Positions 4,104 through 28,391 of a stretch of 29,897 bases of DNA are shown here, one piece after another (within the stretch, counting starts at the first letter, position 1; each line of letters opens with the position of its first letter). Location: the UHGV virus genome UHGV-1792943; one strand, written 5' to 3'. The notes below the pieces were generated by a model. The model made no database searches, had not been told where the DNA came from, and was given only the letters and a program-made list of their open reading frames with translations. Position numbers and translations under genes: made by a program. The DNA is from a virus.

Positions 4104-4471
4104 TGGCTATCTCTGTTTTAGAACGCCTGAAATTAGGTAAAGAGCTATCAGATCTAATGCAGGCGCAGAAAACCGCGCCAGTATTGCAACGCGTCTCAAT
4201 TGGTAAGCAGATTGTTGATGTGATGCTTAAACTGGGGCTTGGGGCTGCGGCCCAATCAGTATCGGATCCGCAGGCGCAGCCAGATACTGTTGCAGGTGAC
4301 ATTCCTAAGATAGTGACAGACTTCCTTGGAGGTGCATTCACAAAGTCCACGCAAATGGAATTTATTGATGCGCTACGTGGGATCTCAAACTATGTAGGCG
4401 AGTTCCTTACGTTGGAACAGGCTAAAGAGCAGACCATAAGCTGGGTGAAAGCCAACGGTTATGCAGGGTAA
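4103..4471 (+). CDS. small protein, DdrA-like by position (122 aa)
   Basis: TAATG overlap with the upstream gene; SD GGGAGG. Confidence 0.5.
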   Translation: MAISVLERLKLGKELSDLMQAQKTAPVLQRVSIGKQIVDVMLKLGLGAAAQSVSDPQAQPDTVAGDIPKIVTDFLGGAFTKSTQMEFIDALRGISNYVGEFLTLEQAKEQTISWVKANGYAG

Positions 4472-4514
4472 TCAAAGGGGCTGAAATGCCCCTTTCACTT
4501 TCCTGTAAGTCCAT

Positions 4515-4526
4515 AAATCACACACT
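4515..4526 (+). promoter_or_regulatory. late-promoter-like conserved element (AAATCACACACT)
   Basis: Sits 38 nt upstream of the TTG start at 4565, after a hairpin at about 4474-4500. Confidence 0.35.
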
Positions 4527-4564
4527 TTTTACACTTCCTGCTTTCTATGTAAGGGGAGTGTATT

Positions 4565-7500
4565 TTGAACAAGTCAGTTACTTCCGCGCTATCCGAAGCA
4601 GCAGACATTAACAGTGTTATTGCGCTGGTTTCTTCATTAGAGAGGCGAGAAACACGCCAGGGGCGCAGTAGTTACGTAGTCACCAGTAAAGGGGCAGAGG
4701 TAAAGACGGCTTTTAAGGTCGTTGATGCCAGCAGTCTGATCATTTCGAACAACCTTGACGGTACGATTAATCCGGCCTTCCCGGAAGAACTCCAGCCACG
4801 TGACCGTACACGGCTATCCAGCAAACTCCAGGTTAACCGTATTGCCTCCAATTTACGCCCGGCACAATTAACGGATTCCGGCATGAGCAGCCACGGAGCG
4901 CCGATAGTTGGTCCGGACAACGTTGTTGAATCCGGCAACGGAAGGAGCATGGGTATCTGGCGTGCCTATGAGCAAGGGCAGGCGGATGAATATCGCCAGT
5001 ACCTGATCGATCATGCAAAAGAGTTTGGTCTGAATCCTGACGACATTTCACAAATGTCTATGCCCGTATTGGTGCGCGAAAGACTCACTGATGTTGATCG
5101 TGCGCAGTTCGCCCGCGATTCAAACATCAGCGATCTGCAAGAGATGGCTGCAAGTGAAAAAGCGTATGCGGATGCGCAATTTCTCACTGAGAGCGTCATG
5201 GCGCTATTTAATCCTTCAGATGATGGGAATCTACTGGCGCGGTCCAATGATGCGTTTATTCGTGCGTTTTTGCGCGAAATAGGTGATACGGCGACGGCAG
5301 GTTTGCTTACAGCCGATGGGCGTCCAACGAAACAACTTATCGACCGCATCCAGAATGCAATTTTTGCCAAAGCGTACAAGGATGAAAGGCTTGTTCGGTT
5401 GGTGGCGGAAGAGCCAGATCCGGAAATGCGTAACATCCTTACCGCATTAAATACGGCAGCCAGCGATTTTGCGCAAATGCAGTCGCTTTCAGGTGATGTT
5501 CACCATGACACGGTAACCGGACTGGTAGACGGTATAGAGCAATTGAATGGTCTGGATAAACAGGCTATTGCCGCGCTACAGGAAGCAATTAACCTTGTTC
5601 GTGAAGCAAAAGATAACGGTCAGGCAGTAGAAGAGGTGATCGCACAGCGTGGATTGTTTGGAGATAGCACTCCGGAAGCAGAAGCGCTTGCTCTGTTTAT
5701 TGTTGCCAACAACCGAAGCGCTAAGCGAATGGGGGCAGCTTTCAAGAAACTGGCGCAAAAAATTAACGATGAACTTATTCACCAGCAACAAGCGTTAGGC
5801 GATATGTTCGGCGGCGGAGATGTCGATCTGCGTAGCATTTTATCTGCCGTTTCTGATGAAATTGAGGCTGAGTATGGCGAAGGTAAAGGGCTTAATTTCG
5901 CCATGTTCGAATCAGTTTCGGGAGATGTCGAACCATACATTTCAAAGCTAATTGCTGATGCGACCAGCGTGGAGGACTTGATCCGAATCGTGAAGGCGTC
6001 AGAAAAAATTAAGGAGTCCGCAAAAAAAATAAAGCGCAATGTATTTTTGGAACTTGGTTTTTATATTCGCAATGTCACCGTTAATGAGATTAAGGCGTGG
6101 GCTAAACGTTATGGATACAGCAACGCTGTGTTAACAACGATGTTATTGTCTTATCAACGCAGCAATTTTTATGCTAACGCACTGCGTGACGCGATTGAAA
6201 AAGGAGATGAAGCTCCTTCACTCGCAGATGAAAGAAATATTGATTGTGACATTGAAACGTTTTGCAATATGTCAGAAGAAGGCGTGCCCGCTGAACAATT
6301 TATACGTGTTTTACATAATGCAGCAAAACATATTCCTGATGACTTTAGCATTGATGAATTGCGCAATGGTTGTCTTGTTTGGTTAGGTAACTATTTAAAA
6401 TCTCCAGCGTCTATTGCAGAGAAAACAGCTTTAAGATTTAGAAAGGAAATGAATAAAGCTGGAAGCGCAGAAGAGATGGTGCGCATAATCCAAAATACTT
6501 TGAAGTTATTCAAAAAGAGCTTGCATAATATCAACGATATTATGGCGGCTGGTAGGAAAATAACAGCCAGCGTCGGAGTTAGCTCCGAACTAACGGCAGA
6601 GGAGATCGCTGATGCGTATATTGAGACACTTGTCAGGCTTAAGGAGATAGTGGAATTAGCAGAGCATTCCTCATATTACGGAATCAAGGAGCGCGTTGAC
6701 TTTACTATAGAACAAATCAATAAAGTTAGGTCAAATAAGGAAAAACTCACTGACTACCTTGCTGAGGTTTTGCACCAGAATGATCATGGGATTGGATATG
6801 ATCTGAAAAAAATGCTTGTTTTTAATCTGGACATACCGGAAGACTTGCAAGCAGAATTATATGAAATAGCTTCATTAACACGTGGACAAAAAGCCTATCC
6901 TAATGCGCTTGAAAATGTAGTACATAAAAAAGTCAGAGCCGCATTTGACATGATTCTTGAATCGTCAAATGTGTCACATGACCAGTCTAAGGAATGGAGT
7001 CGTGGGATTGCTATTTCTGATGAAGCAGAGCAGTTAAGTGGTCACGATAATGAAACTTTCTCCCGTAAAGCATACAGTATTCGCGAGACAATTGAAAAAG
7101 CCTATATTATTTCAGGAGGGACTTTATCTACATTAAAAAATATTAACCACAAGAACAATGTTCGTGCTTTTGCAAGTCGAAATGGGAATATAACAATTGA
7201 TGCTAATAGTGATCATGAGCGTGTATTATGGCATGAAATAGGTCACCATATAGAACATTCAAATCCCCATCTATTGGAGAGGGCCAAAGCCTTCATTAAA
7301 TCAAAAACTAACGGTAAAGTTTCTTATCATAATATTGGTAGCCGTGGCAGTGCTGAGTATTTGGTGCGAACCGACCTAAGTCATGGATATATGTCTAAAA
7401 TTTATATGGAAAATACGGTAAGTTCTGTCAGCGGCAGATTTATATCAAAGCCACCTGCATTAAGCAATTGCAGGGCGACTGAGATTTTTTCTATGGCCTT

Positions 7501-8685: not shown

Positions 8686-10371
8686 ATGGCAACGAAAGAC
8701 AAAAACAAAGGCTTTCTGTCGGCATTGAAGAAAGCCTTCAACAGTGGCGATGTCACGCCTGCTGATCCGGTCGTTTTTACAAGCGGTCATAGTGTCGTTG
8801 CGCGTTCTGGTCTGTCTGCTTTACGTCCGGGTATCCTGGGTGGCAATAGCGATGGCATGACAAGCGCGGCAGATACAGTATCAATTTCGGCAGAACTGCC
8901 CGGCGACCGCCTGCAAAAATACAACATACTGGAGACGATGGCGAAAAGTCCGACTATCTCCACAGCATTAAACATTCACATTGCGCATTCTCTGGCTCCA
9001 TCAAAAAAAACAGGCCTCGCATTTATTCTCGCTCCGAAAAATGGGGCAGATAAGGAGGCTGTAAGTCGATGTGAGGAATTGACCGCTGATTTAAGCTCAA
9101 TGATTAATGATGGCCTGCCATCGTGGGCCATGATCATGGCTATTTTCGGTGTGTCGTATATCCGTCCATATGCAGAGCAAGGGAAGGGGATAACTGGAAT
9201 TGAGTCGAGCTATTACACGCTCCCTCATTTCGTTCAGGAGTTTTATCGCGGTAGCCAACTTGTCGGATTCAGCGGTGATTACATTCTGGATACGCATACT
9301 TTGCGCAGAGTTATAACCGAACCATGGAATCTGGTTTCCATGAAAAACCCGTACTGGACGCCTCAGCATAATGTAATGCCAGTAACTTACGGCACTAAAG
9401 GCTATTCCTTGCTTAGTGAACAGCAGGACAAGCCGTTAATGGAGACGCAGAACTACGGTACGTCATTTCTTGAATACAGTTATGAACCCTACCTGAATTT
9501 ATGTGCCGCGCTTGCTGCGCTGAAAGCAACGCGAAACAACGCTGCAAAAATTGATCGCCTGATTGCACTCACAACGAACACGATAGATCCGGTAAATGCG
9601 GCGAATTATACGCGCGGGGTCAGCCAGGCACTGAAGCGTCATAGCGACCTCGTAGCGCAACGGTCGATTAATTCTAATGCTCTCCCATCTGTACTTAACC
9701 ATCTGATACCCGTCATGGGGGATGGGAAGAACGGGATCACCATTGATACGCAATCTATACCCGCAGATATCAGTGGTATCGAAGACGTTATGTTTCATCT
9801 CCGACAGCTCGCGGCAAGCCTCGGTATTGACGCAACAATGCTTGGCTGGGCTGATCAGATGAGTGGTGGACTTGGAGAAGGCGGTTGGCAGCAAACAGCT
9901 ATCCAGGCCGCCTTACGCGCGAACTGGATCAGACAGGCCGCCCAGCGGACTATTTATCGGCTTCATGACATTCACCTCGCTTATAAATACGGGAAGGTTT
10001 ACACCGAAAAAAACCGTCCTTATGACGTGCAATTCAACTCAATGAACACAGCTATCCAGGAAGAGGAAAACCGAGAGCTGGATGCGCGCGCCAACTTCGT
10101 AGCTGTCATCTCGCAAATAATGGACCAGATCCAGAACAACCCGAAACTGGCGGGTAGCGACGCGTTTATGCGTTATCTGTTCACCGAACAGCTTTGTATC
10201 GACGATGACACTCTCAACGTAATGATCAAAGAGTTTAAAGCGAATGAATCAGAGCAAAACAACGAGCATGGTATGTACGAATCCGCGCCGTTGTCGTCCG
10301 GTGACGATCCGGAAAACTGGACGCAAGAACAATTAATCAACTTTGCAAAATTTGTGATGAGCAATAATTAA
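8686..10371 (+). CDS. putative portal / head structural protein (561 aa)
   Basis: Size and position immediately upstream of a protease/scaffold-like gene; no decisive motif seen. Confidence 0.4.
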   Translation: MATKDKNKGFLSALKKAFNSGDVTPADPVVFTSGHSVVARSGLSALRPGILGGNSDGMTSAADTVSISAELPGDRLQKYNILETMAKSPTISTALNIHIAHSLAPSKKTGLAFILAPKNGADKEAVSRCEELTADLSSMINDGLPSWAMIMAIFGVSYIRPYAEQGKGITGIESSYYTLPHFVQEFYRGSQLVGFSGDYILDTHTLRRVITEPWNLVSMKNPYWTPQHNVMPVTYGTKGYSLLSEQQDKPLMETQNYGTSFLEYSYEPYLNLCAALAALKATRNNAAKIDRLIALTTNTIDPVNAANYTRGVSQALKRHSDLVAQRSINSNALPSVLNHLIPVMGDGKNGITIDTQSIPADISGIEDVMFHLRQLAASLGIDATMLGWADQMSGGLGEGGWQQTAIQAALRANWIRQAAQRTIYRLHDIHLAYKYGKVYTEKNRPYDVQFNSMNTAIQEEENRELDARANFVAVISQIMDQIQNNPKLAGSDAFMRYLFTEQLCIDDDTLNVMIKEFKANESEQNNEHGMYESAPLSSGDDPENWTQEQLINFAKFVMSNN

Positions 10372-10384
10372 CCGGAGGGAAATA

Positions 10385-11383
10385 ATGCAATCACTGAATA
10401 CCGTTACGGATCGCTTCTCCCTGGTAGAGAAAATCCGCAAACACACACCTCAGAACAATCGCAATTACGTTATCCAGTCGGTACGAGACACATTCAACTC
10501 GCCAGAAACAAAAGAGCGTATCGCACTGGGTGAGATGTATGGTTATTACGGTCATGGTCGCCGGGCGATGCACTATAACAAAACGAAAAGCCTGGACTTG
10601 CCGGAAGTCTCTGTTGTGATGGTAGATGGGAAGCCTGTTGTATTGGAGAACGTGCCGTCAAACAGGACTATCGACATTTCAATTGACGACAACGGCATTG
10701 TTACCCATACACAGGAAATACTGGATACGGACACCGGACGTATTGTTCAGGGTATGATTAATTCTGGCGCAGGTGGTTGGTCATGGGCTACATCTGGTCC
10801 AGATTACTCTGTATCCCTGGTAAAGTCTTTTCACGGTTTTGATTACGTAACTGTGCCTAACTATATCAGCCTCGACAAGAAAAGCCTGATGCTTGAATCA
10901 GCAGAAGAACGCGACGCGGCGATTCATGCGGCACTTATCGAACAAGGTTTTACCGATAATGCTGCTACGGATCTGGTTCACCACTTTTCAGCAATGAAGA
11001 GTCAGCAAGCCATATTCGAATCAGCACAACGTGAAGTTCTGGAGTCGGAACTGATACATCTTGAAGTGGAAAATATGCAGCTTCGCGACAAACTACGCGA
11101 CCAGGCCGCGATGATGGAAAGCCAGGGGGAGAACGCGAAGAAATGCCGCCGTATTTTGCGTGATGCTATCCAGGAAATGCCTGTTTTTATCAGCGCAGAA
11201 CAGCGCCGGGCGCTCTGCCGTATGCAGTCAGAGGATGATGCACGCATTGTCGCAGCGATGCTTGAATCCCTGGGGGCTAATGCCACTTATGGTCTGCCAA
11301 TATCAGCCAATAAACAACAAGAAATACCGGTGAAAGAGAACAAGACGGTGACTCCGCTGATCTTTGTGTCTAAGAGGATGTGA
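10385..11383 (+). CDS. putative head maturation protease or scaffold protein (332 aa)
   Basis: SD GGAGGG; coiled-coil C-terminal half; position after the portal-like gene. Confidence 0.35.
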   Translation: MQSLNTVTDRFSLVEKIRKHTPQNNRNYVIQSVRDTFNSPETKERIALGEMYGYYGHGRRAMHYNKTKSLDLPEVSVVMVDGKPVVLENVPSNRTIDISIDDNGIVTHTQEILDTDTGRIVQGMINSGAGGWSWATSGPDYSVSLVKSFHGFDYVTVPNYISLDKKSLMLESAEERDAAIHAALIEQGFTDNAATDLVHHFSAMKSQQAIFESAQREVLESELIHLEVENMQLRDKLRDQAAMMESQGENAKKCRRILRDAIQEMPVFISAEQRRALCRMQSEDDARIVAAMLESLGANATYGLPISANKQQEIPVKENKTVTPLIFVSKRM

Positions 11384-12698: not shown

Positions 12699-12839
12699 TG
12701 TTCAGGCTTATATTCATGCCGTCGTAGCAAATTCTGCGACCGGGTTTAGCAGCCTGAATGTTAGTGCGGACAACCGCAGATATCCGATATTGCGGTATTT
12801 TTGTGTCCGTAAAACCGCGTTACGCCCAAATTATGGTGG

Positions 12840-12912
12840 GGCGTGATGGGGAGGCTTCGGCCTGCTGGTTTCACTAACGCCAGTCTGCTAACCCCGTCAC
12901 GTCCTGCCACCT
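12840..12912 (+). ncRNA. c4-like antisense regulatory RNA (boundaries approximate)
   Basis: Loops CACTAAC (12872-12878) and CTGCTAAC (12885-12892) are antiparallel complements of GTTTAGCAG and GTTAGTG. Those targets occur at 12746-12768 and again at 12913-12950, where GTTAGTG overlaps the SD of the downstream ORF. A UUCG tetraloop hairpin is present. Confidence 0.5.
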
Positions 12913-12961
12913 GTTTAGCAGCGGGTAGCAGGTTGTTAAACCTGTTAGTGAGGCCGTAACT

Positions 12962-26339: not shown

Positions 26340-26522
26340 AGTGTTTTCGTCATGGTTAGCGACTTTGCGGCGGTTTAGAACCCGACCATTAAAGTAAATG
26401 CAAACGATGATCTGATGATGGTAGCGGCCTAAGAAGCCTGACGCCACGGGGTATGAGTCGTCCCCCGTCAAAAAATCGACCGCAGAGTGTCCCCGTCTGT
26501 GTATTAGGGAACGGGGAGGCAT

Positions 26523-26599
26523 AACAGGCAAGGGCGCTGGTGTGATTAACCAGATGAATGAGAAGGGTCAGGTCTTTCTGGTCAGCGCCCTTACCTGTT
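26523..26599 (+). repeat. hairpin family member H2 (arms AACAGGCAAGGGCGCTG / CAGCGCCCTTACCTGTT)
   Basis: 17-bp near-perfect stem; arm sequence related to H3. Confidence 0.45.
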
Positions 26600-26799
26600 A
26601 CGTCCCTCCCGCGTAACAGCCATTGGTTAATGGCTTTCTGGGATAATGTCTTGTAACGGGTATATCCCGTCATGCTGAAGGCGCTAATCACGCTGGAAGC
26701 CAGGGTTATGCATCCCCTGTTACCGAATTGCAGCCAGGGCGCGGTGCGCCGAAAAGCATACGGAGGTGGAAGCCCTCGCCGGAGACGTACCCGGCAAGT

Positions 26800-26876
26800 G
26801 ATGGTGTAGCTCAGTAGGATAGAGCAGCAGCCTTCTAAGCTGTCGGTCGGTGGTTCGAATCCACCCACCATCGCCA
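26800..26876 (+). tRNA. tRNA-Arg (anticodon TCT)
   Basis: Full cloverleaf folded by hand: acceptor gatggtg / caccatc, anticodon loop cttctaa, T-loop ttcgaat, encoded CCA. Confidence 0.8.
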
Positions 26877-26882
26877 ATTTAG

Positions 26883-26968
26883 GGGAGTTAGTCCGTAGGG
26901 GTAGCGGGGTAGACTGTAAATCTACTGTCATTGCGACTCGGATGGTTCGACTCCATCACTCCCCACCA
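26883..26968 (+). tRNA. tRNA-Tyr-like (anticodon GTA), long variable arm, slightly irregular D-arm
   Basis: Acceptor ggggagt / actcccc, anticodon stem gtaga / tctac with loop ctgtaaa, 15-nt variable arm, T-loop ttcgact, CCA. Confidence 0.5.
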
Positions 26969-26972
26969 AATT

Positions 26973-27048
26973 GCCGGTTTAGCTCAGTTGGTAGAGCGCC
27001 TGCCTTGTAAGCAGGATGTCAGCGGTTCGAGTCCGTTAACCGGCACCA
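26973..27048 (+). tRNA. tRNA-Thr (anticodon TGT)
   Basis: Acceptor gccggtt / aaccggc, anticodon loop cttgtaa, T-loop ttcgagt, CCA. Confidence 0.8.
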
Positions 27049-27050
27049 AC

Positions 27051-27146
27051 ACAACAGGTAAGGGTATTTTGCGACGTCGGAGATCGCCGAGCTTGGCAGA
27101 GGGTTCGAATCCCTACGAAGTACCCTTACCGTTGTGATGAATGCAC
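27051..27146 (+). repeat. hairpin family member H3, with an internal T-arm-like minihelix
   Basis: Arms ACAACAGGTAAGGGTA / TACCCTTACCGTTGTG, tail ATGAATGCAC; begins 3 nt after tRNA-Thr. Confidence 0.55.
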
Positions 27147-27315
27147 AGGCTGATGTGCCGCAACTACAGTAGTGCGCGCTTTGCGGGGCTTGCTACAACC
27201 CTGTGTCGGAATTCAGCACCGACCATCACAGTTTGATTCTCTGGCATGAGCATAACGCTGAAATAAGTCCAGTCTGGTGCGGTCTGATCACCCGCCGTTA
27301 GCTCCACGATACGGA

Positions 27316-27416
27316 GCGCACAACAGGTAAGAGTATTTGTAGAGTTCGACTCTCTACCGTGGGCTTTTTCCCGCGATGCGAGCCATAAATGCTCTTTCCG
27401 TTGTGGTGAATGCGCG
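27316..27416 (+). repeat. hairpin family member H4, with an internal perfect T-arm-like hairpin (gtagag-ttcgact-ctctac)
   Basis: Arms GCGCACAACAGGTAAGAGTATTTG / AAATGCTCTTTCCGTTGTGG, tail TGAATGCGCG. Confidence 0.55.
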
Positions 27417-27558
27417 TTGCTAGCGCGCAAGTCCGCCCTATGGCAACGAGGCGGCGTAGTAAATATCGATGCCTCAGTCATCAAGCGCACTGACCGGCCT
27501 TATGGGCTATGAAAAAAAGAGGCGCAGTCGGAGTTCAGCACCGACCATCACAATCACT

Positions 27559-27645
27559 GGAGAGTAGGGAGCATGGTGCTCAAGCGGTCTTGAAAACCGT
27601 CCCATTGCGCAAGCGATGATGGTTCGATTCCATTACTCTCCGCCA
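27559..27645 (+). tRNA. tRNA-Ser-like (anticodon TGA), type II with long variable arm
   Basis: Acceptor ggagagt / actctcc, anticodon stem gcggt / accgt with loop cttgaaa, T-loop ttcgatt, CCA. The D-arm is not perfectly canonical. Confidence 0.45.
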
Positions 27646-27768
27646 GCGCAACGTTAAGAGTATTTGGCTAATTAAGCGAATGCCGGAAGCAGAACCGGAT
27701 CACCAAATGCGTACAGGCGTCATCGCCGCCCAGTCAGCCAAATGCTCTTACCATTGCGGTGAATGCGG
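27646..27768 (+). repeat. hairpin family member H5
   Basis: Arms GCGCAACGTTAAGAGTATTTGGC / GCCAAATGCTCTTACCATTGCGG, tail TGAATGCGGC; starts at the base after the tRNA-Ser-like CCA. Confidence 0.55.
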
Positions 27769-27936
27769 CTAAGCGCACGCGGAACAGTTAAAACAGTAAA
27801 GGTGGTCTTTTTACTGGCGTAACGAGAATCCATAAGTGATCCGGCGTTAATTGTTAACTGGTTAACGTCACCGGGAGGCACCCGGCACCGCAACCTAACA
27901 GCAATGGCGTTTTGTCTTAAAAGGTGGCTGCAAGTG

Positions 27937-28065
27937 ATGGATTTTTGGGCGTTTGCCGATAAAAACCCGGAGTGGACATTATTGTTTCTGCTGGTGGTTG
28001 CATACGGGGTAGAGCAAGCGGCAAAAGCCTTACGCGGTTCTGGCAAAAAGCGTAAGCGTAATTAA
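27937..28065 (+). CDS. 42-aa small membrane peptide (MDFWAFADKNPEWTLLFLLVVAYGVEQAAKALRGSGKKRKRN)
   Basis: SD AAGGTGG 8 nt upstream of the ATG; one hydrophobic helix and a basic tail; absent from the ORF track because it is under 60 aa. Confidence 0.35.
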   Translation: MDFWAFADKNPEWTLLFLLVVAYGVEQAAKALRGSGKKRKRN

Positions 28066-28074
28066 CAGTAATCT

Positions 28075-28150
28075 GGCCCTTTAGCTCAGTGGTTAGAGCG
28101 GGCGACTCATAATCGCACGGTCACCGGTTCAAGTCCGGTAGGGGCCACCA
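28075..28150 (+). tRNA. tRNA-Ile2 (anticodon CAT, lysidine type)
   Basis: Near-identical to the enterobacterial ileX-type tRNA as recalled: acceptor ggccctt / aggggcc, anticodon loop ctcataa, T-loop ttcaagt, CCA. Confidence 0.8.
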
Positions 28151-28329: not shown

Positions 28330-28391
28330 GCGTACAACAGGAAAAGGCGTTTAATTAGCGTGAGCGCCGTTTCCGTTGTGGTAATTGCGGC
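28330..28391 (+). repeat. hairpin family member H6 (short-loop version)
   Basis: Arms ACAACAGGAAAAGGCG / CGCCGTTTCCGTTGTGG, tail TAATTGCGGC. Confidence 0.5.

Follow-up and report, generated by a model that had tools for sequence, protein, structure and literature searches.

Conserved T-loop hairpins in a modular family of phage RNAs as candidate mimics of the tRNA elbow

We analyzed a 29,897-nt stretch of viral DNA (UHGV virus genome UHGV-1792943; hereafter the window, read on one strand, 5' to 3') and focused on the interval 27049-27420, where two long hairpins, H3 and H4, each enclose a minihelix resembling the T arm of a tRNA. The window belongs to a P1/D6-like phage-plasmid, and its 26.4-28.4 kb segment matches phages D6, P7 and P1 as well as many P1-like plasmids. 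In the P1 annotation, the homologous segment is the C1-controlled ban operon, comprising an operator/promoter, a dicF-like region, tRNA-Asn, tRNA-Thr, tciA-C, tRNA-Ile2 and ban. ARAGORN predicts five tRNAs in the window, all on the + strand: tRNA-Arg (26800-26876), tRNA-Tyr (26882-26968), tRNA-Thr(UGU) (26973-27048), a tRNA-Ser(UGA)-like gene (27559-27645) and tRNA-Met/Ile2 (28075-28150). The interval under study is the space separating tRNA-Thr (Rfam tRNA, 74.9 bits), whose CCA end lies 1 nt 5' of H3, from tRNA-Ser, which sits between the H4 unit and a further hairpin, H5. All hairpin coordinates in the window refer to the + strand.

Both minihelices lie on the + strand at the positions where the first-pass annotation, made from the letters alone, had placed them. 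We defined a T arm as a 7-nt loop U54 U55 C56 R57 A58 N N closed by a G53-C61 pair on a stem of about 5 bp. The H3 minihelix gaggg-ttcgaat-cccta (27099-27115) has four Watson-Crick pairs (AGGG/CCCT, 27100-03/27111-14) and one G.A pair, with the loop TTCGAAT at 27104-27110, and it adjoins the 3' strand of the surrounding stem, hereafter the frame stem, which is a tRNA-like placement. The H4 minihelix gtagag-ttcgact-ctctac (27339-27357) forms six perfect pairs (27339-44/27352-57) around the loop TTCGACT (27345-51) and adjoins the 5' strand of its frame stem. The G53-C61-type closing pair and the U54 U55 C56 R57 A58 loop pattern are present in H3 and H4 alike; read on the opposite strand, the H4 loop gives no T loop. 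These T-arm-like motifs exceed chance: GTTCRANYC occurs nine times in the window against 3.9 expected, and seven of the nine fall at 26853-28135 (+), five inside tRNAs and two in H3 and H4. A lone GTTCGAATC at 5905-5913 (+) lies far from the tRNA cluster.

Neither minihelix is part of a tRNA gene, for which we looked for a 7-bp acceptor stem, a D arm, an arm with a 7-nt anticodon loop and a T arm, called by ARAGORN or by RF00005 at 29 bits or more. A true or cryptic tRNA is ruled out at H3 and H4 by ARAGORN (default, relaxed, intron and mitochondrial modes) and by Rfam (gathering threshold and E<=10), with RF00005 giving zero matches even at E<=10 on the 381-nt interval alone. In relaxed mode, ARAGORN returned only a poor pseudo-cloverleaf with mismatched stems that borrowed frame sequence. 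The earlier description of T-arm-like elements that do not fold into a cloverleaf is therefore borne out.

H3 and H4 are members of a family of hairpins in which a constant stem of about 20 bp, the frame, holds a swappable interior. The 5' strand of the frame reads CACAAC, a bulged A and then GGTAAGAGCATTG; the 3' strand reads CAGTGCTCTTTCC and GTTGTG and is followed by single-stranded GGTGAATGC. Beside the bulged A, the stem usually contains a U.U mismatch. H3 (27050-27136; -42.7 kcal/mol, z -5.3) has its outer stem at 27050-55/27131-36, the bulge at A27056 and its inner stem at 27057-71/27116-30; in H4 (27319-27405) these elements are at 27319-24/27400-05, A27325 and 27326-38/27387-99. At least five long hairpins of the family cluster in the window, including H5 (27647-27758), the minimal member H6 (28333-28380), whose interior is 9 nt, and Ha (26513-26609), a divergent member 5' of the tRNAs that corresponds to inverted repeat I2 (GGCATAACAGGCAAGGGCGCTG ... 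CAGCGCCCTTACCTGTTACG; -50.4 kcal/mol, z -5.2).

An exact search of viral contigs with the frame 3' motif, in which T loops were ignored, yielded at least 120 loci, and the family-wide counts that follow refer to the 120 loci listed. These are mostly lambdoid prophages of 40-50 kb, and the frame is present in more than 100 viral contigs. A 16-mer survey of genome contigs gave a single true frame among the 120 loci listed for it, the rest being chance matches that are uninformative on taxonomy. The viral loci hold 77 unique frames with 47 unrelated types of interior, 25-170 nt long (median 46). Frame hairpins begin 1-2 nt past tRNA CCA ends, an adjacency seen in many loci, and a rho-independent terminator often precedes the frame; in lambda (NC_001416), a canonical frame lies directly after tR', at about 44,787-44,862. 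No full tRNA is enclosed by any of 151 frames. Rfam has no family match on the frame hairpins of the window, of lambda or of 11 further lambdoid loci, RefSeq carries no annotation on the frame hairpins, and we did not find the family described in the literature searched, which does not prove that no description exists. CUGAUG and CGAAAC near the frames led us to consider a hammerhead ribozyme, which we rejected: the A9 position is C or U, CGAAAC lies in a hairpin loop and no Rfam ribozyme model matches.

The frame structure belongs to one strand, the transcribed one, as shown by the excess of G.U-type over A.C pairs in frame stems (108 vs 18) and by the orientation of the tRNAs within 1.5 kb of a frame, 140 of 140 of which are on the same strand as the frame. 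Folding as single-stranded DNA (ssDNA) would produce a G.T strand asymmetry as well. The frame also has constant inverted repeats (CACAAC/GTTGTG), a bulged base and a hypervariable center, its interiors are exchanged like cassettes, and unit ends share the direct repeat CACCRCAAC. These features could suggest a DNA-level element whose hairpins, folded in ssDNA, would be sites of recombination or cassette exchange in the loose manner of integron attC, the T-loop resemblance being incidental. We consider this very unlikely. The attC consensus is RYYYAAC/GTTRRRY, and the frame ends, (G/A)CACAAC and GTTGTG(G/A), break it at two positions; an attC-like site was rejected on this ground and because the annotations of the homologous P1, D6 and P7 stretches list no integron-type integrase. 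The frames always lie on the operon sense strand, with a tRNA co-orientation of 140 to 0, the interiors carry RNA-type motifs (T loop, UUCG tetraloop) and, as described below, the adjoining domain is a detected small RNA (sRNA).

We then counted T-arm-like hairpins, defined as a stem of at least 4 bp closing G-U[U/G]CRANN-C, across the loci. One hundred lie within tRNAs or transfer-messenger RNAs (tmRNAs), 25 within the 9.75 kb of frames and 31 in the remaining ~2.07 million strand-nucleotides. Their density is thus 2.56 per kb in frames and 0.015 per kb elsewhere, a ~170-fold difference. Such a hairpin is present in 12 of 72 unique frames, where shuffles expect 0.07 and the reverse complement gives 0, and in 7 of the 47 interior types: in five, including the H3 type, the T arm abuts the frame 3' strand, as in tRNA, and in two, the H4 type and one other (L105), it abuts the 5' strand. 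Three loci (L215, L216 and L227, at 1543-1660, 10311-10428 and 4426-4543) carry one type of cargo, which folds as a full cloverleaf, with an acceptor-like stem, a D-like arm and a 6-bp T arm, in which a UUAC tetraloop replaces the anticodon loop. This shows that tRNA mimicry without decoding recurs in the frame family. A second recurrent cargo motif, ACGGG-YYCAUAW-CCCAAYC, is T-arm-like without A58 and occurs in several frames, with P1 copies (in locus L001) at 2286-2379 and 2562-2640; a related copy, GUAACGGGUAUAUCCCGUCAUG, lies at 26650-26675 of the window, upstream of tRNA-Arg and outside any frame.

The H4 type is represented by 20 distinct variants that are easily aligned, with 98% pairing in the frame stem. 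Its interior is a four-way junction without linkers, formed by the frame stem, the T arm, a second hairpin, P3 (27358-27375), and a third, P4 (27376-27386), which has 3 bp and a CGAGC loop (CGAGN in variants, GAG being invariant). The order of the arms, T arm first and short arm last, is that of a tRNA reversed. Pairs were changed on both sides in all three interior helices: 3 of 6 in the T stem, 4 of 6 in P3 and 2 of 3 in P4. T stems read GUAGAG/CUCUAC, GCAGAG/CUCUGC, UCAGAG/CUCUGA and GUAGGG/CCCUGC, as well as GAAGAG/CUCUUC in an Enterobacter phage, and 99.2% of T-stem cells are paired across the 20 variants. The loop stays constant (UUCGA[C/U]U, with C/U at one position as the sole variation). 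Taken together, 97.4% of cells hold a pair; sliding the partners by 1-3 columns lowers this to 39-57%, and none of 500 shuffles reached the observed pairing values.

For the H3 type, we aligned 11 variants, including one from Enterobacter phage BUCT554. The stem is 97% paired and four of its pairs are changed on both sides, with compensated versions such as UUUUG/CGAAG, UUGAG/CUCAG, UUGGG/CCCAG and UUGCG/CGCAG. The interior consists of a hairpin with a 7-nt loop (27072-27086, CGAC-GUCGGAG-AUCG), a linker (27087-27098, CCGAGCUUGGCA) and the T arm. Three of the four stem pairs and the loop of the hairpin are invariant in 11 of 11 variants, the fourth pair being C.A or U-A; variation in the linker is confined to its first part, and the T arm does not vary. 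Because this invariant interior sits within a covarying stem, conservation is stronger in the T arm than in the helix around it. The linker GG at 27095-27096, also invariant, is a possible analogue of the tRNA D loop; this GG in H3 and the invariant GAG of the P4 loop in H4 are candidate counterparts of D-loop G18 G19 that might dock on the T loop to form an elbow.

The same comparisons bear on the origin of the minihelices. Related phages conserve the T loops: the H3 interior shows 100% identity across 16 records of P1-family phages, and H4-type relatives keep TTCGA[C/T]T while the stem changes by compensation. Of the two possibilities raised in the first-pass annotation, that of tRNA-like structures, which might recruit tRNA enzymes, is supported as regards the structures, and these are conserved; remnants of disrupted tRNA genes are not supported. 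Such remnants, left without function by recombination or decay in a tRNA-rich hotspot, might be expected from the location of H3 and H4 inside a tRNA cluster; over 10-15 nt, their T arms are exact matches to those of genuine phage tRNAs, and one family member is near a whole cloverleaf, which makes an ancient tRNA origin of some cargos credible. Yet when all T-arm-bearing interiors were compared by BLAST with the 151 distinct tRNAs of these loci (phage tRNAs, host tRNAs not being compared separately), matches of 10-18 nt ran from T arm to T arm only and nothing beyond it was alike. No intact tRNA was found at the H3 or H4 position in the relatives compared. The H4 T stem is compensated around a near-invariant loop, the other H4 arms covary too, and the H3 interior is more conserved than the stem around it. 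We thus observe neither a likeness to a parent beyond one arm nor neutral decay, and regard present-day remnants as quite unlikely.

The interiors found at a given position differ between relatives. After tRNA-Thr, P1, D6 and SJ46 carry H3, and P7 and Ro157c2YLVW carry the same frame around another interior, of 29 nt and lacking a T arm; at the H4 position, P1 has a frame with yet another interior, whose loop is UUCAUAU, not a T loop. This indicates that the cargo is exchanged while the frame stays.

P1 annotates two open reading frames (ORFs) on the minus strand over this region, plp and upl (2029-2598 in the P1 locus), antisense to the 3' end of tRNA-Thr, H3 and the structured linker, and a 108-aa minus-strand ORF of the window (27164-27490) matches phrog_14500, which corresponds to upl. 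If the opposite strand were coding, the hairpins would be by-products, an explanation that we find extremely improbable. No Pfam domain is detected, phrog_14500 is of unknown function and its match is limited to the conserved linker, and plp has no family match. In P1, plp overlaps the 3' end of tRNA-Thr and H3; in the window it is broken, a P1-specific segment being missing. The interiors, moreover, covary as RNA helices. The plp and upl genes may be mis-annotations of a non-coding RNA region.

Each frame is followed by a second domain (domain 2). In order, it comprises a small hairpin, GCRY-AGGCUGAU-RYGC, a stretch of variable sequence, another hairpin, GCCGG-AGAUCAGCA-CCGGC, and CACCACAAC, the complement of the GUUGUGGUG found at the base of the frame. 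This closing helix covaries (GUUGUGGUG/CACCACAAC, GUUGCGGUG/CACCGCAAC, GUUGUGAUG/CAUCACA), and the pattern, with covarying closing helices, was found in about 80 loci. After H3, domain 2 (27131-27231) shows an STnc100-consensus architecture, with GUUGUGAUG at 27131-39, the small hairpin at 27143-58, the variable stretch and a 3' part (27205-27230) made of GUCGG-AAUUCAGCA-CCGAC (27205-23) and CAUCACA (27224-30), complementary to 27133-39. Domain 2 after H4 (27400-27553), which is direct repeat D5, matches the family pattern: GUUGUGGUG, the small hairpin (27412-28), the variable stretch, a hairpin at 27527-45 and CAUCACAAU, followed by tRNA-Ser. Between the two units, the minimum free energy (MFE) fold contains two small hairpins 5' of H4, at 27276-96 (loop CUGAUC) and 27301-17 (GCUCC-ACGAUAC-GGAGC), and both stems covary across loci when read by eye. 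In lambda, frame and second domain together span about 44,787-44,941 and the domain is closed by GUUGUGCUG/CAGCACAAC; its interior is homologous to that of H5 (27661-27744).

One class of domain 2 is the sRNA STnc100 (RF02076), whose Rfam consensus holds the same GGUG/CACC closing helix. After H5, the domain at 27755-27892 is STnc100-like (model positions 31-147, E 1e-07), its 40.8 bits lying below the gathering threshold of 47; on H3 and H4, RF02076 has no match. At one locus (L120), a full-length STnc100 match (6707-6913) starts inside the 3' arm of a frame (6603-6735) and ends at a terminator, so that the start of the covariance model is at least compatible with cleavage in the frame. STnc100 was detected by reverse transcription PCR in vesicles of Shiga toxin-producing E. 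coli (PMC12370729), which indicates that units of frame and domain 2 are transcribed, and PasD, encoded next to Q, was reported as its structural homologue (bioRxiv 10.64898/2026.05.13.724894). A match to another sRNA, isrJ (63.4 bits), lies at 791-864 of a lambdoid contig (L241), where a tRNA follows about 450 nt downstream and an H4-type frame about 560 nt downstream, showing that other named prophage sRNAs share this neighborhood. Altogether, the comparisons across loci show that RNA structure of the sense strand, including a real T-loop hairpin, is under selection, and that the neighboring domain is a known sRNA.

Could the frame alone account for these conserved units? It might act as RNase III/RNase E punctuation that separates tRNAs and mRNA segments, with the interior, T arm included, as filler. 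The ~20-bp stem suits RNase III, frames start 1-2 nt after tRNA CCA ends, the STnc100 model begins within the frame, and interiors are freely swapped among close relatives and can be as short as the 9 nt of H6. Filler is not expected, however, to stay invariant across diverged stems, to show compensatory changes in three separate interior helices, or to be enriched ~170-fold in T-loop hairpins on one strand only, and we consider punctuation by itself an unlikely account.

On balance, these sequence comparisons lead us to regard the H3 and H4 minihelices as somewhat probable mimics of the tRNA elbow, maintained by selection and carried as the cargo of modular, processed phage non-coding RNAs. 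Such RNAs would be transcribed within a phage operon (ban, under C1 control, in the window; the late operon, dependent on Q, in lambdoid phages), and each would combine a constant frame with a swappable folded cargo, that of H3 and H4 holding the T-loop hairpin that would imitate the elbow. H3 would adopt a tRNA topology, with the T arm on the 3' strand of a long stem, one hairpin with a 7-nt loop and the conserved GG; in H4, the T arm would form the first arm of the linker-less four-way junction. The frame could then serve as a processing and stabilizing stem, excised by RNase III within the stem and/or by RNase E at the conserved, single-stranded GGUGAAUGC, and the stacked T-loop hairpin might be read by host factors that recognize the T arm only: TrmA and TruB, which make m5U54 and psi55, and RNase P through its T-loop-binding site. 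The outcome would be a compact, stable small RNA.

Hairpins composed of an acceptor stem and a T stem-loop are good RNase P substrates, the T loop mattering for the rate and site of cleavage, and the smallest unit that this enzyme recognizes is a coaxial helix capped by a T loop. C4, an RNA of the immunity region, is matured by RNase P from its P1/P7 precursor (PMC11143913), and Y RNAs with a T arm acquire psi55 (PMC4201824). Because T-arm hairpins serve RNase P, the C4 precursor is cut and Y RNAs are modified, recruitment of TruB, TrmA or RNase P by H3 and H4 is plausible. Counting 12 bp from the T loop, geometry would place the RNase P +1 position at U27065 of H3 and at G27333 of H4.

Several observations weigh against elbow mimicry, or against its proposed readers. 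In both hairpins, the helix runs on beyond the predicted RNase P +1, and neither has an RCCA. When H4 is folded as a single sequence, its MFE structure lacks the T arm, the support for which is comparative only, and the H3 T stem never varies, so that it offers conservation without covariation. As noted above, the asymmetry of G.T pairs would equally suit the folding of one DNA strand. The interiors without a T arm in P7 and Ro157c2YLVW (after tRNA-Thr) and in P1 (at the H4 position) indicate that the T arm is dispensable for whatever the frame itself does. Finally, the homologous P1 genes trnT, plp, upl, tciA-C, trnI and ban are non-essential by CRISPR interference under laboratory conditions, with plating unaffected (PMC10695390). 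This dispensability fits an accessory, host-dependent function, as expected at a "moron" site, which is located downstream of PR' (PMC4104026).

Elbow mimicry could be taken one step further. The frame would then be an RNA "cassette holder" common to lambda-like and P1-like phages and displaying one of dozens of interchangeable cargos; these, including the anticodon-less tRNA mimics of the H3, H4 and L215 types, would be decoys or competitors for host factors that read the elbow, such as tRNA-targeting defense nucleases and tRNA-modifying and processing enzymes, the diversity of cargos reflecting an arms race at the "moron" site. We hold this extension to be unlikely.

Known RNAs resemble these units in part. 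STnc100 and PasD share their niche, downstream of Q/PR' in lambdoid prophages and beside tRNAs and morons, and the STnc100 model spans the frame 3' arm and the following domain closed by GGUG/CACC; it includes neither the frame as a hairpin nor the cargo, however, and nothing tRNA-like is described for either RNA in the literature examined. Bacterial Y RNAs (YrlA/YrlB), some of which are phage-encoded, likewise combine a long terminal stem with a tRNA-mimicking module that has a T arm. In YrlA, the long stem replaces the anticodon stem, whereas in H3 it replaces the acceptor stem. tRNA modifications are found on YrlA-type RNAs, one of which is an RNase P substrate; in Y RNAs, the Ro60-binding motif GNCGAAN0-1G lies on the 5' strand of the terminal stem (PMC4201824). 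We rejected a Y RNA at H3 and H4, since this motif is absent and the 5' strands of both frames read CACAACAGGTAAG... The YrlA model RF02553 gave no match on the hairpins and a single one of 16.8 bits at 26941-26997, covering the tRNA-Tyr T arm and the first part of tRNA-Thr. The Ro60 gene rsr is unannotated in the homologous P1, D6 and P7 stretches, the window proteins not having been searched for a TROVE domain.

Model RNase P hairpins and the C4 precursor, a non-tRNA that P1 already matures by RNase P, also have a T loop capping a coaxial helix, but H3 and H4 differ from them in lacking both RCCA and a free 5' leader 12 bp along the helix. mascRNA, which is cut from the longer MALAT1 transcript, offers a tRNA-like fold without a decoding anticodon arm, and cmscan aligns the H3 interior to the whole mascRNA model (acceptor-like stem, one arm and T arm). 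This candidate was dismissed: 14.9 bits against a gathering threshold of 42.5, with E 2.7, is at chance level, and the family is eukaryotic, so no homology is implied. In phages L and Sf6, tRNA genes lie at the 5' end of the lambdoid late operon, those of Sf6 being Asn and Thr, as in P1. These are true tRNAs, and the hairpins between and after them are undiscussed there; how the phage L tRNAs are released from the late mRNA was reported as unknown (PMC8022706).

Modules resembling tRNA within other RNAs are thus familiar from Y RNAs, tmRNA, viral tRNA-like structures, mascRNA and the C4 precursor. Here they occur as one class of cargo in a family of hairpins with a constant stem and a swappable interior. 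Enterobacterial phages and phage-plasmids contain many members of this family; lambda has it too, and in P1 it is overlaid by the doubtful ORFs plp and upl. If the RNAs are processed and stable, they would help to account for the release of tRNAs and mRNA segments from the operon transcripts, provide a structural context for STnc100-type sRNAs and offer a testable route by which phage RNAs may engage the host tRNA machinery or tRNA-directed defenses.

The frame strands also recall the sRNA GcvB, in CACAACA (27050-27056) and GUUGUGAUG (27131-27139), together with 27224-27230 and the equivalents elsewhere. We take GUUGUGAUG to resemble the GcvB seed itself. The R1 seed of GcvB has CACAACA as its consensus target (PMC4104026). 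The likeness may be coincidence or mimicry; we do not favor a link to GcvB, since the stem sequesters both strands and no match to the AgvB model was obtained.

Two other RNA features of the window were noted. The tRNA-Ser(UGA) gene at 27559-27645 is atypical: it is not found under the Rfam tRNA model at the gathering threshold, its best placement at E<=10 is tRNA-Sec (44.6 bits, cut-off 47), and its homologue is labeled "tRNA-OTHER" in RefSeq, the D6 record stating that tRNAscan-SE could not assign the amino acid. Farther away, the window carries the C4 antisense RNA (12829-12914) and an a1/b1 target (12708-12760), with Rfam scores of 70 and 53.9 bits.

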